Assembly: GCA_030390025.1 (NCBI GenBank) | Contig: CM059452.1 | Span: 8,122,001-8,186,000 of the forward strand | DNA: 64,000 nucleotides | DNA from: Squalus acanthias | Lineage: Eukaryota | Reading direction: 5' to 3' | In this document: positions 2,286-64,000 of the stretch, one piece after another | How positions within the stretch are numbered: the stretch's first letter is position 1 | Layout of the letters: the number at the start of each line of letters is the position of its first letter | The notes under the pieces: generated by a model | Told to the model about the DNA's origin: nothing | What the model saw: the letters and a program-made list of their open reading frames with translations, nothing else | The model's database searches: none | Translations under genes and position numbers: made by a program

Positions 2286-2603
2286 CCAGAGATCTGGAGA
2301 TGTTTCGGCTTTGGGTGACCCCTTGATGAGAGACCTGGCAGGTATAGACCGAGCCGGCAAACCAATCCCCGGCGGTGAATGTCAGCCGACTGGTCGCCGA
2401 GAAGTTCCCGTTCACTTCAAAGACGGGAGAAGTGACGAAATCCGAATCCATGAGCTGCCCATTCTTCAGCCAAGTCACGGTCAGTGACTTTGGACGGAAA
2501 TCGATGATTGAACACACGGCGGTTGCAGACCTGATGCTGGTGATTTCTTCACTGGAACTCCGGGTGAGGATCACAGTTGGATGGACGATGTCCTGTTTAG
2601 GAC
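2286..2603 (-). CDS. IGHM: Immunoglobulin mu heavy chain CH2 exon (open)
   Basis: tttgaag| acceptor and |gtaagt donor, 318 bp, phase 1/1; [49 protein letters not shown] matches shark IgM CH2. Confidence 0.92.
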
Positions 2604-7310: not shown

Positions 7311-7610
7311 CTCGTATTTTTATTCCCCAGTCCGACCCACTTTGTCGAAACTGGCATTAGATTGTGCTGCTCCCCACCTCTGACTCGGTGATGGTTAACT
7401 GGCTGCTCAGGGTGTAGGTTCCCTTCTTGTTGAACACTGACGGGTAGGTCTTCAATCCAGTGGTGATCGGCTCTTTATCTTTCCTCCAGGAAAGGCTGGT
7501 GATTTCCGGGAAGTAGTCCATCGCCAAACAGCCGTAGGTGACGGGGCCGCCGGTGTTGGGTTGTTCACAGGAGGAGAGCAGGGCGTAGAGGGTGGGAGGA
7601 GACTGTGTCG
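7311..7610 (-). pseudogene. IGHM: Immunoglobulin mu CH1 exon with in-frame stop
   Basis: ttcccag| acceptor, |gttagt donor, 300 bp; [60 protein letters not shown]; TAA at 7357-7359 replaces the Tyr before the second Cys. Confidence 0.9.
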
Positions 7611-14200: not shown

Positions 14201-15322
14201 ATAGATTAATAGTTGAATGCATAATTATCACTTAAATAAGATGTGTTAAAATACGTTTCAATGATTTTTGATTTCTAAAACCTTCCTGTTTTCTGCCTAC
14301 AATCTTCTTTCAAACAGTTTTAAACACATATAATATTTGCAATAGATCAGAAATCTGCTGCCGCTCGATGTGACCGAGATTAAACATTCTAGAAACGCCA
14401 AAGAGTTTCACAAATTCTAGTTATTCAGAGTAACACAGACACATACTCTCCTCAGCAGATAAGCAGAAAATCACATCACTGAGGGGCTGAATCCCTCGAC
14501 ATGGAGCAGCAGCTTAATTCTATAAACCCTTTCCGCAGAATCAAATATAACATTGCGAAAAAATCTCAATACAGAATCCAGCGAACAAGCCTATCACTGA
14601 AATAACTAATTATTGAAATAAACAGAAATCTAAATAATGACAGCAGAATTGTGAGCAGACGGATCATGTTTAATATTGATTTTATAGCATATTTTAATAA
14701 TATTGGGTGAGATTATTAAATTATAATAATTTAATTTATATTAATTTAAATCTGTTCTGGATGCAAATTTGTTAATTATGTAGTTATTAATTACAGTAAT
14801 ATTTCACTTATTGAATATGACCGTAGGTGAACATTAGATTAATAAATGACAATCTCATTATCACAAATAAAAATACATTAAAATATTTTAAGATTATTTT
14901 TGACTGCTAAAGCTTTCTATTTTCTGCCTACAATCTTATTTCAACCACTTTTAGTCACATAATGTTCACATTTGAGCAGAAAACCTGCAACCATTAGATG
15001 TCACCGAGATTAAATATTGCAGAAACGCCAAACAGTTCAACAGCTGTTAGGTATTTAAAGTAACTCAGGCACACAGTCTCATCAGCAGATAAACACCAAA
15101 TCACATCAATCAGGGGCTCAATCCCTCAACAATATATTTTTCTGAAGGAACTGTTAAATTCTATTATCCCTTTGCAGCAGAATCAAATGAAACAAAGCAA
15201 AAAATCTAAATACAGAATCCACCGAACCCAAGTTTCAGTGAATGAATGAAATATTGAAATAAACAGAAATATAAACTGAAGACACAAATATAACCGTTAC
15301 TGAAAGAGTGAATGTTTCTTAC

Positions 15323-15370
15323 CTGCAGTCACCGTCACCATGGTGCCTTGTCCCCAGTAATCGAGGTAGT
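15323..15370 (-). CDS. IGHJ: IgH joining segment JH (YLDYWGQGTMVTVTA)
   Basis: WGxG motif, |gtaag donor, preceded by RSS. Confidence 0.95.
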
Positions 15371-15409
15371 CACAGTGTTACATTCCCTGGGTTGGGTCAC
15401 ACAATAACC
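15371..15409 (-). other. JH recombination signal, 23-bp spacer
   Basis: Plus-strand CACAGTG (15371-15377), 23 bp, ACAATAACC (15401-15409). Confidence 0.95.
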
Positions 15410-15732
15410 GGCTCTGTGTAAAACAACAGAAATCCAACATTAGTTTAAATATTCACATCCCAGAGACAAATAAAGTCACGATGGATCTTCATAAAATGAT
15501 ACATGTGTTAATGGATACTTTTCACTCTTTATAAATAACCTGATGTTTTATATTTCACAGAGTAACCCATGAACAGTTAATCAAATCATCAACTGATCAA
15601 TGATTAATTATCACAGTTTATCCATATTAAGCTGTGCTAGTAGACAGTGCTGGACACAAATAGGACTTCACTGCATCTACAGTTGGATTGTGAAAACGAG
15701 CACTGACCCAGACTCACTCAATTGGTGCTGAG

Positions 15733-15760
15733 GGTTTTTGTATTGACAGTAACTGCTGTG
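15733..15760 (-). other. 12-bp-spacer RSS 3' of the joined V-D
   Basis: CACAGCA + GTTACTGTCAAT (12 bp) + ACAAAAACC. Confidence 0.95.
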
Positions 15761-16239
15761 CTCTCCTGCTGTTTTTTGCACAGTAATACATGGCGGTGTC
15801 TTCGGTTCTCAGATTATTGATCTCGATATAGGTTGTGGAAGTTGTTCTTGAAGGAATGATCCGGCCTTCGACTCCAGGCGCATAATAATTGGTATCCGAC
15901 GGCTTTCTGTAAGCAAGCAGCCACTCCAGCCCCTTTCCGGGAATTTGTTTAATCCAGTACATGTGGTGGCTGTCCAGACTGAACCCGCTCACTGAACAGG
16001 ACAGTTTGTGAGATTCTCCGGGCTTCTTCGACACAGAAGCCGACTGAGTCAGCACGATATCGGACCGGACATCTGTCAGTGAATGAAAAAAATGCAATTA
16101 CATTGTGGAACATTCACATCAATGAATAGAAATAAAAGCACAATATCTGAAGCTGTCTTCTATCGTGTCACTAAAGCCGTGAGGAATACTCACAGGCGAA
16201 GCAAGCCAGTAACAAACAGAGGCACGGGGCAAGTCCCAT
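15761..16239 (-). CDS. IGHV: IgH variable gene, IgW-like, germline-joined to a D-like tail (leader 16194-16239; V(D) exon 15761-16072)
   Basis: Leader MGLAPCLCLLLACFA|YVRS, 121-bp GT-AG intron, DIVLTQSASVSKKPGESHKLSC..WIKQIPGKGLEWL..EDTAMYYCAK-NSRR; open frame; TTTAAATA TATA-like element ~90 bp upstream. Confidence 0.9.
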
Positions 16240-32660: not shown

Positions 32661-33127
32661 ATGAACAGGAACCTCGGCAAAGACCTGTTTCCAGTTGGAG
32701 CCCTGGTGTTGATGATGTTGTGTGAGTTCATTGATCAGCTCAGACGCCTTGTTTCATTAATCTCTTAATAGCTTGTGGTTGTTGAGTGAGTTTGTTTTGT
32801 TCACAGCCGTTCGGTGTGAGGATCGGATCTCACCCGCTGAGCAGGTGGTGTCTCGGGAAGGGGAACGGGCTGAACTGGACTGCCGGCTCTCCGTTGGTAC
32901 TGGGGATACCGTAGTCTGGTACAGACAAGCACTGACGGGGGCGCCGACATTTATCGGCTCCATATACCAGGGAAATGAGACTACAGGACGCTACAAACTG
33001 TCTTTTGACCGAGTGAATAAGTCCAACACCATCTCTATGGACGGCACCTCGGCCAGAGACGCCGGAGTGTATCACTGTGCGGTGGAGACACAGTGAGGCA
33101 AAGAGCGGCTCCAGCTATACAATATCC
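32661..33127 (+). CDS. TCR alpha/delta-type V gene, intact (leader 32661-32721; V 32807-33088; 23-RSS 33089-33127)
   Basis: MNRNLGKDLFPVGALVLMML|SVRC-EDRISP..LDC..WYRQ..DAGVYHCAVE; CACAGTG-23-ACAATATCC; TGACGTCA at 32415. Confidence 0.88.
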
Positions 33128-33714: not shown

Positions 33715-33784
33715 TGTATCCACTCAATTTGTTTCATTCTCCTTGCATGTATCATTATGTTAATTCTTGTTCTTGGTTTGACAG

Positions 33785-34104
33785 CTGCGCCTTGTCACTC
33801 GGAGACTTTCCAAATATCGGTTTATCGGGGAACCGAAGCACAAACCATTTCGCTTCATCACAAAGCTACTTTCGCTACAAATGATTTCGTATTCTGGTAC
33901 CGGCAGTTCTCCAATCAGGCTCCCGAGTATCTCAGCTCCACATTCAGAGAAGAAAGAGTTGAGGGCAGGTTTAAAGTGTCTGTGGACCGTGAGAAAGGCT
34001 CCACCACTCTCACCGTTAACACGGCTCGCCTGTCAGATGCCGTGCTGTATTACAGTGCGGTGAGACACGGTGAAACAAAGAGGTGAGGAGCCTGAACAAG
34101 AACT
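33785..34104 (+). CDS. TCR-type V exon with open frame but lacking both canonical cysteines; 23-RSS 34066-34104
   Basis: tttgacag| acceptor; TISLHHK..FWYRQFSNQAPEYL..GRFKVSVD..SDAVLYYSAVR; CACGGTG-23-ACAAGAACT; leader probably in gap. Confidence 0.75.
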
Positions 34105-41165: not shown

Positions 41166-41645
41166 GGTTTTTGTACAGCGACAGATGAGTTTTAAAACAA
41201 TGTGATTCTCAGCCCGCAGAAATATACGGCGGTGTCCTGGATTTCCGCTCGCGTGATCGTTAAAGGAAACTTCTTTTCTGCGTTGGTCTGGCCGGCCTTG
41301 AATCTTCCCTTGGCAAAATCCGCCTCGTCTTTGCTGTTTTTATCCCGGTACAAAATAAATCGCGGAGCCTGGTTCGTGTACTGCTGGTACCAGTACAGAT
41401 CGGGGTTACCGTGGCTTGCTGTGTAGCTACAGTTTATTTTCACAACATCTCCTTCAGTGACATAGAGCGCGGTCTGAGGTTGTGACACCGAATCTGCCCG
41501 AATCTCCCCTGAAATAAAAGTTAACTGAGGGTTGAATACAATACTGAGATAGAAAATCTATTAACCTCACATTGGTGCACAGACACAACGCATGGTCATA
41601 CTTACCGAACATCAGGCACAATATAACGAGGTTGCGGTACGTCAT
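41166..41645 (-). CDS. TCR alpha/delta V gene, intact (leader 41606-41645; V 41205-41508; 23-RSS 41166-41204)
   Basis: MTYRNLVILCLMF|GEIRA-DSVSQPQ..INCSY..LYWYQQYTNQAPRFILY..DTAVYFCGLR; CACATTG-23-ACAAAAACC. Confidence 0.92.
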
Positions 41646-51088: not shown

Positions 51089-51453
51089 ATGCTCCGGATT
51101 TACAGAGTTTCCCTGCTGATTTACACTCTGATCTGCACGGATGTGAGCGGTGAAGATGAGGTGAAGCAGTTCCCTCGGCGTGTGGTTGTTAGTGAAGAGG
51201 GAATCGTATCGATCAACTGCTCCGCTACCGCTGCCTTTACCGTCCTGCGCTGGTACAAACAGCACCCGGATCAGACCCTCCAGCACCTGGTGATGGCTTC
51301 AAGCGGGGCCGATCTGCACGGGAGGATCACTGCTTCAATCGGGGGAGGCAATAAACTCAGTGCCCTGAGACGCGCGAATGAGAGACAGCGCCACCTATCT
51401 CTGCGCCGTGAGCCCACAGTGTAACAAACAGGCGGAGAGTCCGCACAGAAACC
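51089..51453 (+). pseudogene. TCR V pseudogene, frameshift in FR3; 23-RSS 51415-51453
   Basis: EDEVKQFP..INCS..WYKQHP; DSATYLCAVS lies in another frame; CACAGTG-23-ACAGAAACC. Confidence 0.85.
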
Positions 51454-55376: not shown

Positions 55377-55844
55377 ATGTATTACTCGGTACAAGTGAAT
55401 GTATCACTCGTTATTCTGGTGCTGCTACCATGTAGGTACAGGAGCTGTGCTCAATAACCCGCAGTGTTTTTTTATTCACGTTGCTCCGGTGTTTTATTAT
55501 CTGAATGTTTTTACAGGTCGATGTCTCTCGGACCGAGTGCTGCAGTCTCCCGCTGCGATAACAGTCCGGAGCGGGGATTCGGTGCAGATAAACTGCAGCT
55601 ATGACATGTCCAGCATTTACGGCATGCACTGGTACAAACAGAGACCCAGTCAGGGACTGGAGTGGGTAATAATGCTGGCATCAGCTGGCAAAGAGAAAGG
55701 GACCGATTTGAATTGGATCTTTCCACTGCGGACAAACGCGGCCAATTGGTCATTGAGAGCACGGAGAGCGCGGATACCGCGGTGTATTACTGTGCGATAG
55801 AGCCGCACACTGAGAGGAAACGCGGCAGTCACTGTACAAAAACC
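55377..55844 (+). pseudogene. TCR V with one 1-nt frameshift at ~55697 (leader 55377-55431; V 55517-55805; 23-RSS 55806-55844)
   Basis: DRVLQSP..INCSY..MHWYKQRPSQGLEW / DRFELDL..DTAVYYCAIE; CACACTG-23-ACAAAAACC. Confidence 0.85.
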
Positions 55845-58700: not shown

Positions 58701-58872
58701 CTTTACTCGTGTAACTGCAGTGTAAATTTTATTATATATTAATGATTAATAAAAGGAAATACGTATTAGAATTAACAGTACAAGGTCTAACCATAAATAC
58801 AGGGACCAGCTGAGACTCGCCCCTGATCACAATGTTCCCCTGACGCGCTGATATGTTGAGCGACGCTCTGAC

Positions 58873-59360
58873 AGTTTTTGTACAGGTCCAGCCCAGCTCC
58901 GTGTCTCTGTGGGGCTCAGTGCGCAGTAATACACCGCGGAGTCTGTCAGTTGTGTTTCAGACACATTCAGCGGGACGGTTCGGTTCGAATCATTGAGCTT
59001 CGCTGATAAACGGTCCCCTGGAAATCTCCCTCCATTCTCGCCAAATCTGTTTCTCTGTCAGCAGATACTCTATGGATCCGCTGGGATACTGACGGTACCA
59101 GAATAGTTCAGGAGTGCTGGTGCTTGTAGCTGTATAATTACAGTGCAACTGAACATCGTCTCCTTCACTGACTGTGGTTGCAGCCGGTGTCTGTGAAACG
59201 GAATCTCCTCGACAATATCCTGCAAGAGCCCAGAGCGATACTAAATTAAACAATGTCACTTCACTGTGTTTACCCCCCAGAATCAACCTGTCACCCCCAA
59301 CACTTACCTGAAAAGCAAATCAGGGCAGTTAAACATAAATATATATCCCCACAGCTCAGG
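58873..59360 (-). pseudogene. TCR alpha-type V pseudogene (V 58912-59219; 23-RSS 58873-58911; leader lacks ATG)
   Basis: DSVSQTP..LHCNY..LFWYRQYP..YLL +1 frameshift ..DSAVYYCALS; CACAGAG-23-ACAAAAACT. Confidence 0.85.
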
Positions 59361-60570: not shown

Positions 60571-60680
60571 GGAATGATATAGAAACCTAATAGTCTATTG
60601 TCTCCGTGGGTTTGGGATCAAATTAACCCCACAGATAACAGCACAGAAGAACACATAATGGAGCTGTAAATTCTCGCTGA

Positions 60681-61238
60681 GGTTTTTGTACGGGGCCTTT
60701 GCTTTTTCTGACGCTGTGCCTCACTGCACAGTAATAGACCGCCCCGTCCTCCACACTCAAGCTGCTTATATTGAGGTAACCGTACTTTCTAGACGTGTTA
60801 GCAGCCGCCAGATATTGTCCTGAGATTTCGACTCCCTTCAGTGCTACTGTTTTGCTAATTATCCAGCTTGGAGGCTGTGACGGTTTTTGCCGATACCATT
60901 GCATGTAGTCAATATCCGGGCTTTTATATTCGCAATCTAACTGCACCGAACCCCCTGTTGACACGGCGATTGTCACCGGAGACTGAGTTACTGGATCTAC
61001 ACATAGTCCGCCTGTGAACATAGGGGAACAGAAGAGCAGAAGATTAAATCGAAACGTGTGTCTATCTGTATGAGAGTGGGTAACCCTCCATCTACGCAGC
61101 TGTCCATCATGTGGATATTTCTGATCGGTAATTGTACTAAATCCCTGCACACGCTCTTTGCATCAACCAGCTAACCTGTGTTTTTAATATAATCCAATAC
61201 TTACTGTTCAACACAGCCGCCAGTATTATTAGAAACAT
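60681..61238 (-). CDS. TCR alpha/delta V gene, intact (leader 61205-61238; V 60719-61011; RSS with 22-bp spacer)
   Basis: MFLIILAAVLN|SGLCV-DPVTQSP..LDCEY..MQWYRQKP..DGAVYYCAVR; CACAGCG-22-ACAAAAACC. Confidence 0.88.
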
Positions 61239-63565: not shown

Positions 63566-63589
63566 TCACTAACTGCAACTCTCAGTGTG

Positions 63590-63930
63590 GGTTTTTGTAC
63601 GGGATCCGCTATATCTCTGCAGCAGTGTGGGGCTCATGGCACAGAAATACACGGCGGTGTCGGTGACAAGAACCGCGGTGATATTTAAAGGAACCGTTTT
63701 GCTGTCTCTGTGGAAAACAGCAGAGAACCGGCCTGGGAAATCTGGAGACCGGTCTACCGTCCCCGAGCTATATATCCTCAGTAAATATCTCGGAGCTTCC
63801 CCGGGATACTGGATGTACCAGAACAGAGTTGGAGCAGCTGCCGAGTAACTGCAGTTCAATATTATGTTTTTTCCTTCCTGAATCATTAATTCAGACGGAT
63901 CCTGGGACACTGAGTCTTTGCCACTCGTTC
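63590..63930 (-). CDS. TCR alpha-type V exon, open (V 63630-63930; RSS with 24-bp spacer); leader outside window
   Basis: DSVSQDP..LNCSY..LFWYIQYPGEAPRYLL..DTAVYFCAMS; CACACTG-24-ACAAAAACC. Confidence 0.9.
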
Positions 63931-64000
63931 CTGTAACAAAACACAGAATGTGTCAAAAGTCTGGGAGTGAATATAACACTTGGAACACACACTGACCCTT

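Follow-up and report, generated by a model that had tools for sequence, protein, structure and literature searches.

Background

Germline-joined immunoglobulin (Ig) clusters were reportedly first found in the horn shark, in 1988. Germline VD and VDD genes of sharks and skates are described in passages of PMC2193156, PMC5192425, and PMC4279169. In the partly joined IgM clusters covered there (VD-J, VDD-J, and VD-DJ), V is fused to D in genomic DNA, the remaining pair of recombination signal sequences (RSSs) is intact, and open and fully joined clusters are intermixed. Part of PMC2191167 assigns horn shark clone 1113 (VHII, 1993) to a second VH family; its IgM cluster is unjoined and expressed, and its V is 61% identical to the main family, is alike in FR3, and has a 3-nt insertion in CDR2 and a 6-nt deletion in FR3. 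The excerpted text of PMC2435157 describes somatic VDD-J intermediates of the nurse shark, which form in no strict joining order. Sections of PMC4279169 and PMC12227049 deal with somatic products in which an IgW V is switched to an IgM C or an IgH V is brought to TCR-delta, and with IgH clusters lying among TCR V genes.

The gene analysed here most likely belongs to the known kind, a germline partly joined IgM cluster (VD-J or VDD-J), as judged by its segments and signals: the V 23-RSS and the intervening signals are gone, and the D2 3′ 12-RSS and the JH 23-RSS are kept. It is probably an IgM cluster with a V-D-D2 12-RSS fusion left by two ancestral RAG joints in a germ cell or early embryo, in a copy that is probably a pseudogene. 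It differs from the partly joined clusters of the passages cited above in having a family II V, a nearly absent D2, and a stop codon in C-mu-1. With 1113, as portrayed in that part of PMC2191167, it shares both indels, the FR3-end identity with the main family, and an IgM D1-D2-J-C-mu cluster; however, 1113 is single-copy and unjoined with an inverted D1-D2 spacer, whereas the family of our gene has at least 12 copies, 10 of them joined, and a spacer in standard orientation. The nurse shark intermediates of the PMC2435157 excerpt have the same configuration, and their loose joining order resembles the seven joined states of this genome, but the configuration here is fixed and duplicated in the genome. 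The somatic switch and trans products resemble our gene in combining an IgW-related V with a non-IgW C, and their loci likewise have IgH clusters among TCR V genes; in contrast, D and J are of the IgM type here, the boundary lies within V, and the event appears to be neither somatic nor at the coding joint (sections of PMC4279169 and PMC12227049). Our literature search found nothing direct on an IgW-type V on an IgM cluster or on a genome-wide census of joined clusters.

Organization of the cluster

The window is the whole 64-kb stretch of DNA that was analysed (C29:8122001-8186000). It contains a shark IgM heavy-chain cluster encoded on the minus strand, with the following features.

16194..16239, minus strand: leader exon, ATG at 16239, GT donor at 16193, leader peptide IgW-like
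15776..16072, minus strand: VH exon, frame open, VH family II (horn shark 1113-like), groups with IgW V
15782-15780, minus strand: VH Cys codon
15761..15775, minus strand: junction tail; the 13 nt of the initial annotation are 15773-15761
15733..15760, minus strand: 12-RSS, heptamer two mismatches from consensus, nonamer exact
15410..15732 (323 bp), minus strand: D2-J spacer, no free D
15371..15409, plus strand: JH 23-RSS, heptamer exact, nonamer with one mismatch, facing the 12-RSS
15323..15370, minus strand: JH, IgM-type, GT donor at 15322
7311..7610, minus strand: C-mu-1 exon, both splice sites present, TAA at 7359-7357
2286..2603, minus strand: C-mu-2 exon, open
Beyond the window start, in the neighbouring stretch L058: C-mu-3, C-mu-4 with secretory tail, and TM1, open

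The V is followed by four C-mu exons, the secretory tail, and TM1. The isotype names are our presumption, based on shark IgM motifs and on the contrast with the many-domain clusters of C284. The 3′ end of the VH exon is about 4-6 nt shorter than in unjoined paralogues. An exact-consensus RSS search gave 0 matches, and a scan of the whole 64 kb allowing up to 3 mismatches was used instead. Among the 12 RSSs that it returned, only the one behind the window VH has a 12-bp spacer; at this threshold there is no 23-bp-spacer RSS behind that VH, and no further RSS between its 12-RSS and the JH 23-RSS. The initial annotation had described a V without a 23-RSS after the Cys codon, a 13-nt tail running into a 12-RSS, and no free D in the ~320 bp before the JH 23-RSS. 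The scan bears out every coordinate, the spacer measuring 323 bp.

Source of the joint

Fourteen clusters have a free D2, and in 12 of them the D2 3′ RSS is letter-identical to the 28-nt 12-RSS (of the other two, one does not match the pattern and one is interrupted by N). The RSS-to-J stretch is 93-96% identical to other C29 clusters; hence, the 12-RSS is not there by chance. The unjoined cluster L005 has the order V-23, 12-D1-22, D2-12, 23-J. Its D2 12-RSS lies at +743 from the Cys codon, compared with +22 in the window gene. The window gene is 721 bp shorter than L005 with both ends of the loss at coding ends, and the two are 94.8% identical on the V side and 94.8% on the D2-J side.

The junction tail is composed of 1-3 untemplated A, a 7-nt exact D1 core (15772-15766), and then 5 nt, which in the twin locus L002 are G-rich and can be assigned to the D1 end and/or the last 1-2 nt of D2. 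Matching the tail to IgM D segments, a check that had been proposed initially, points to D1 and not D2. Compared with eight D1 alleles, the window tail matches at 7 of 7 nt, which is borderline on this copy alone (shuffle p 0.054), and D1 and D2 are alike in sequence; the twin tail matches at 10 of 11 nt (shuffle p 0.018). The best D2 match is 4 nt. No P nucleotides are present at the window joint, possible N addition amounts to 1-3 A only, and the ends are trimmed, so the RAG/TdT signature is weak. D2, cut to 1-2 nt, is the shortest among the 6 distinct VDD-J joints scored.

These features make V-D1-D2, i.e., VDD-J, the most likely state of the window gene. A germline coding joint one step from JH had been suggested at the outset; the pre-joined, inherited state holds, while the single joint gives way to what are probably two, V-D1 and D1-D2. 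One RAG coding joint would have linked V to D1 and another D1 to D2, with D2 trimmed to 1-2 nt, in an ancestor's germ cell or early embryo; duplication of the joined cluster followed. Both RAG as the agent and D1, next to a trimmed D2, as the source of the tail are what we infer.

Since D1 and D2 are alike and P nucleotides are lacking, two other routes have to be weighed. In the first, which is unlikely but survives best, the D1 coding end sits directly on the D2 3′ 12-RSS with zero D2 letters. The twin tail can be read wholly as D1 (10/11), and so can that of an independent joint, L003 (9/10); moreover, a V-D1-joined, D2-free gene of the same V family exists (L006). It could have arisen, with the same small chance, as a RAG hybrid joint in the germline, or through a deletion driven by homology of the G-rich D1 and D2 ends, after V-D1 joining. 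The D1 22-RSS and the D2 3′ 12-RSS point the same way and make up a 12/23 pair, and the pertinent part of PMC2191167 attributes the spacer inversion of 1113 to a related non-standard event. Against this reading, the last 1-3 nt of the tail fit D2 too, and 7-12 nt of D2 are kept in 4 of the 6 distinct VDD-J joints. Hybrid joints are also rare products, which counts against it. A shade more doubtful is the specific version in which a RAG hybrid joint (D1 end on D2 12-RSS) was fixed in the germline, was repeated independently in L003, and together with the loci L017 and L024 (see below) would record non-standard RAG outcomes in germ cells.

Ranking below these, and improbable, is a single V-to-D2 coding joint that skipped D1 (a true VD-J) and was later blurred by mutation. 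The V 23-RSS is compatible with the D2 5′ 12-RSS under the 12/23 rule as outlined in part of PMC2191167, and a 14-nt D2 allele fits, by eye, 9 of the twin's last 12 positions; however, 3 changes in 12 nt would be required in the twin and 5 in the window, where the flanks differ by ~5%, and D1 requires one.

Inheritance of the joint

The twin locus L002 lies ~300 kb away in inverted orientation and has the same breakpoint as the window gene. The two differ at 7 of 1020 nt, two of the differences being in the tail, and are 98.1% identical over 4005 nt, with 68 mismatches in 3.8 kb of intron. Joining predates the duplication, because two diverged loci cannot share the joint of one lymphocyte. On the evidence of the breakpoint common to the diverged duplicate, the window joint is inherited, which answers the initial concern that the join might be found only in lymphocyte-derived reads.

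A somatic origin needed testing, because VDD-J intermediates are frequent in nurse shark thymocytes according to the excerpted text of PMC2435157. That such a lymphocyte intermediate was assembled in place of the germline allele is very improbable, as somatic joints are unique to each clone and one breakpoint is common here to two loci 2-4% diverged over >10 kb. In its favor, apart from that frequency, the window joint was not seen in the contigs of six public runs (X1, X2, X3, X4, X10, and X14; 20 listed). None of the 20 listed runs has half of the query words, and no RNA holder is on record. The window's private alleles occur in 0 of the 6 runs examined, whose tissue and species are not stated, so the runs may be from other species. 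The VDDJ joint of L021, a cluster of the same V family, is identical over 30 nt in two DNA runs, X2 and X4, which come from different studies and one of which could be the assembly's own source. A 91-nt contig of X3 runs from V into a 12-RSS with seven other letters and two gaps, having 18 letters on the RSS side, and weakly hints at a different joint. X14, RNA by our guess, covers the window V type; V-to-J joints are present in it, as is splicing of J to the start of a C-mu-1-like exon, in contigs that do not tie the V family to C. The window joint is absent among the 12 junctions listed of its 48.

Relation of the V family to IgW

The window V family groups with the V genes of two many-domain C284 clusters and a horn shark protein named IgW V, the support being 100/100 in the DNA tree and 100/97 in the protein tree; near-duplicates, frameshifted V genes, L022, and J-only loci were left out of both trees. 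Reviews reportedly remark on the IgW likeness of horn shark 1113. The window V is collinear with L005 and 87% identical to it, compared with 66% to the closer true IgW V. It agrees by eye with the printed 1113 protein sequence at 81 of 96 residues (Fig. 5 in the part of PMC2191167 considered here), and a catshark protein, P0001, is 82% identical to it.

The same V type is found unjoined on an IgM D1-D2-J-C-mu cluster (L005/L060/L076). In FR1, L005 resembles IgW (81%) more than IgM V (58.5%). In the unjoined clusters L005 and L057, the final 42 nt of V match IgM V at 92.9% and IgW at 83.3%, and the V RSS matches that of IgM cluster L045, whose V belongs to family I, at 97.5% versus 64.3% for IgW. 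The 3-nt CDR2 insertion, the 6-nt FR3 deletion relative to family I, and the shared FR3 end are all present on unjoined L005. By these comparisons, the IgW-to-IgM boundary falls no later than late FR3, which places it upstream of any RAG cut and apart from the coding joint of the window gene. The chimera is older than the joint, because V switches to IgM-like sequence within FR3 of the unjoined clusters. No IgW D, J, or C exon is present in the window cluster; identity to C-mu-1 is ~35% for C1 of the C284 clusters and 90% for that of the window.

An IgW-related V would have reached the IgM cluster much earlier than the joint, likely by homologous exchange in FR3, and family II V genes may have been on IgM clusters before this lineage split from the horn shark. 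The initial proposal, in which RAG made the chimera at this joint by linking the V of an IgW cluster in trans to the D of an IgM cluster, draws on the grouping in both trees and on 1 interlocus VDD-J among 58 nurse shark thymic clones (PMC2435157, excerpt) but has next to no probability, being refuted by the unjoined IgM paralogues L005 and L057 with the same V and a boundary upstream of the V RSS, and by the same unjoined arrangement in horn shark 1113 (PMC2191167, in part). A join between two IgM clusters may have taken place but would not produce an IgW/IgM chimera. Nor is the 12-RSS native to such V genes, both unjoined relatives (2/2) carrying a 23-RSS.

Two further observations concern this family. 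P0003 is a family II V protein whose last residues match a read-through of the D2-type heptamer, as the window frame does, and may be another pre-joined gene. At L045 (C29:8298963), a family I V is followed by the kind of RSS and 3′ flank that characterizes the family II clusters L005 and L057, a sign of V exchange between clusters.

Joined and unjoined clusters in the genome

Own-genome searches and fetched stretches gave at least 47 IgM-type clusters with a V, some of them on small contigs and possibly second haplotypes; 13 are open and 34 joined. The joined ones comprise VD-D-J (1), V-DD-J (1), V-D-DJ (2), VDD-J (8), VD-DJ (4), V-DDJ (3), and VDDJ (15). All seven joined IgM states thus occur in one genome (C29:5.8-10.3 Mb, C130, C449, C988, and others), and all joints of the 34 clusters are at segment borders among the junctions listed. 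The window V family has at least 12 clusters with 73-100% protein identity, 10 of them joined, with six distinct joints.

Family II, unjoined (2/12): L005, L057
Family II, VD-D-J (1/12): L006
Family II, VDD-J (4/12): window, L002, L003, L004
Family II, VDDJ (5/12): L011-L013, L021, L022

The three family II clusters with a D1 3′ 22-RSS (L005, L006, and L057) have the D1-D2 spacer in standard orientation, and the inverted arrangement (V23-12D1 12-23 D2 12-23J) is found in none of them; in the window gene the spacer is deleted. An apparent absence of D2 from L057 proved wrong, as D2 is present and is followed by 500 N. An in-frame bias of the joints was also rejected, 2 of 6 distinct VDD-J joints in frame being the chance level.

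In L017 (C449) and L024 (C29:8791800), a family I V lacks its last 3 nt and has gained a G-rich 7-nt tail resembling a D1 end. These V genes keep their own 23-RSS, and D1 (with one base changed in the 5′ nonamer) and D2 remain free; this could reflect either an open-and-shut joint or conversion from a V-D1 gene. L052-L055 are four related JH segments that lie behind repeat sequence and have no RSS, with no V in the 4 kb fetched. L043 (C3:208.24 Mb) and L049 (C3:206.92 Mb), which are related to each other, are fully joined IgM V genes that contain stops; they lie on a different contig, of 209 Mb, at a great distance from the main locus.

Constant region and predicted function

In the assembly, the C-mu-1 TAA (7359-7357) takes the place of the Tyr codon that five aligned paralogues carry immediately ahead of the second Cys, and makes the window copy a likely pseudogene. 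In a B-cell precursor, the VDDJ exon would need one more 12/23 step, a deletion between the 12-RSS and the JH 23-RSS, for completion; arithmetically, joining to JH without trimming keeps the frame (22 + 14 nt). The product would be a heavy chain in which the start of CDR3 is fixed and only one junction varies, and in the window copy the stop would truncate it. The V, J, and four C exons of L002 are open. Given the stop in the window C-mu-1, the twin is the likely working gene, and we infer that it, and not the window copy, could make IgM.

TCR-delta D and J segments have an RSS layout with a 12-RSS side, which a V with only a 12-RSS could presumably no longer join. A heavy-chain-only reading, in which C-mu-1 is skipped, was considered and rejected: the splice sites are intact, and FR2 has the usual light-chain-facing residues.

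Neighbouring sequence

The start of the J-C intron is tandemly duplicated in the window. In this intron near 14710, the signal changes: before this point, the window sides with C29 versus the C130 pair at 93:4 sites, and after it at 47:48, consistent with either a crossover or misaligned repeat units. A 3′ tree that grouped the window with C130 clusters was set aside, as its signal maps to the J-C intron and not to the joint.

The window also contains V exons or 23-RSSs in both orientations at 32761-33127, 33715-34104, 41166-41557, 51415-51453, 55806-55844, 58830-59057, 60626-61162, and 63572-63952. One window V exon was tested and had TCR alpha chains among its solved-structure matches. A near copy is present in L059, at the opposite flank of the IgM cluster. 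C911:373726-519384 (L056) has more than 25 tandem VH-like genes at ~4-kb spacing, ~40% identical to the query, which we take to be possibly TCR-associated Ig-like V genes.

Implications

As a shark gene this one is unremarkable, and the window copy is likely dead. Reading germline joints against their precursors is hard for heavy chains, as a passage of PMC2193156 points out; here, open and joined versions of one rare V family stand in one assembly, and germline joints can be read against precursors. Family II is IgW-related, and its divergence does not require the spacer inversion proposed in the relevant part of PMC2191167. If the hybrid-joint reading is true, RAG outcomes in germ cells would rewrite the segments that a cluster can use. 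With the open twin, one can ask whether partly joined genes complete their rearrangement in young animals.
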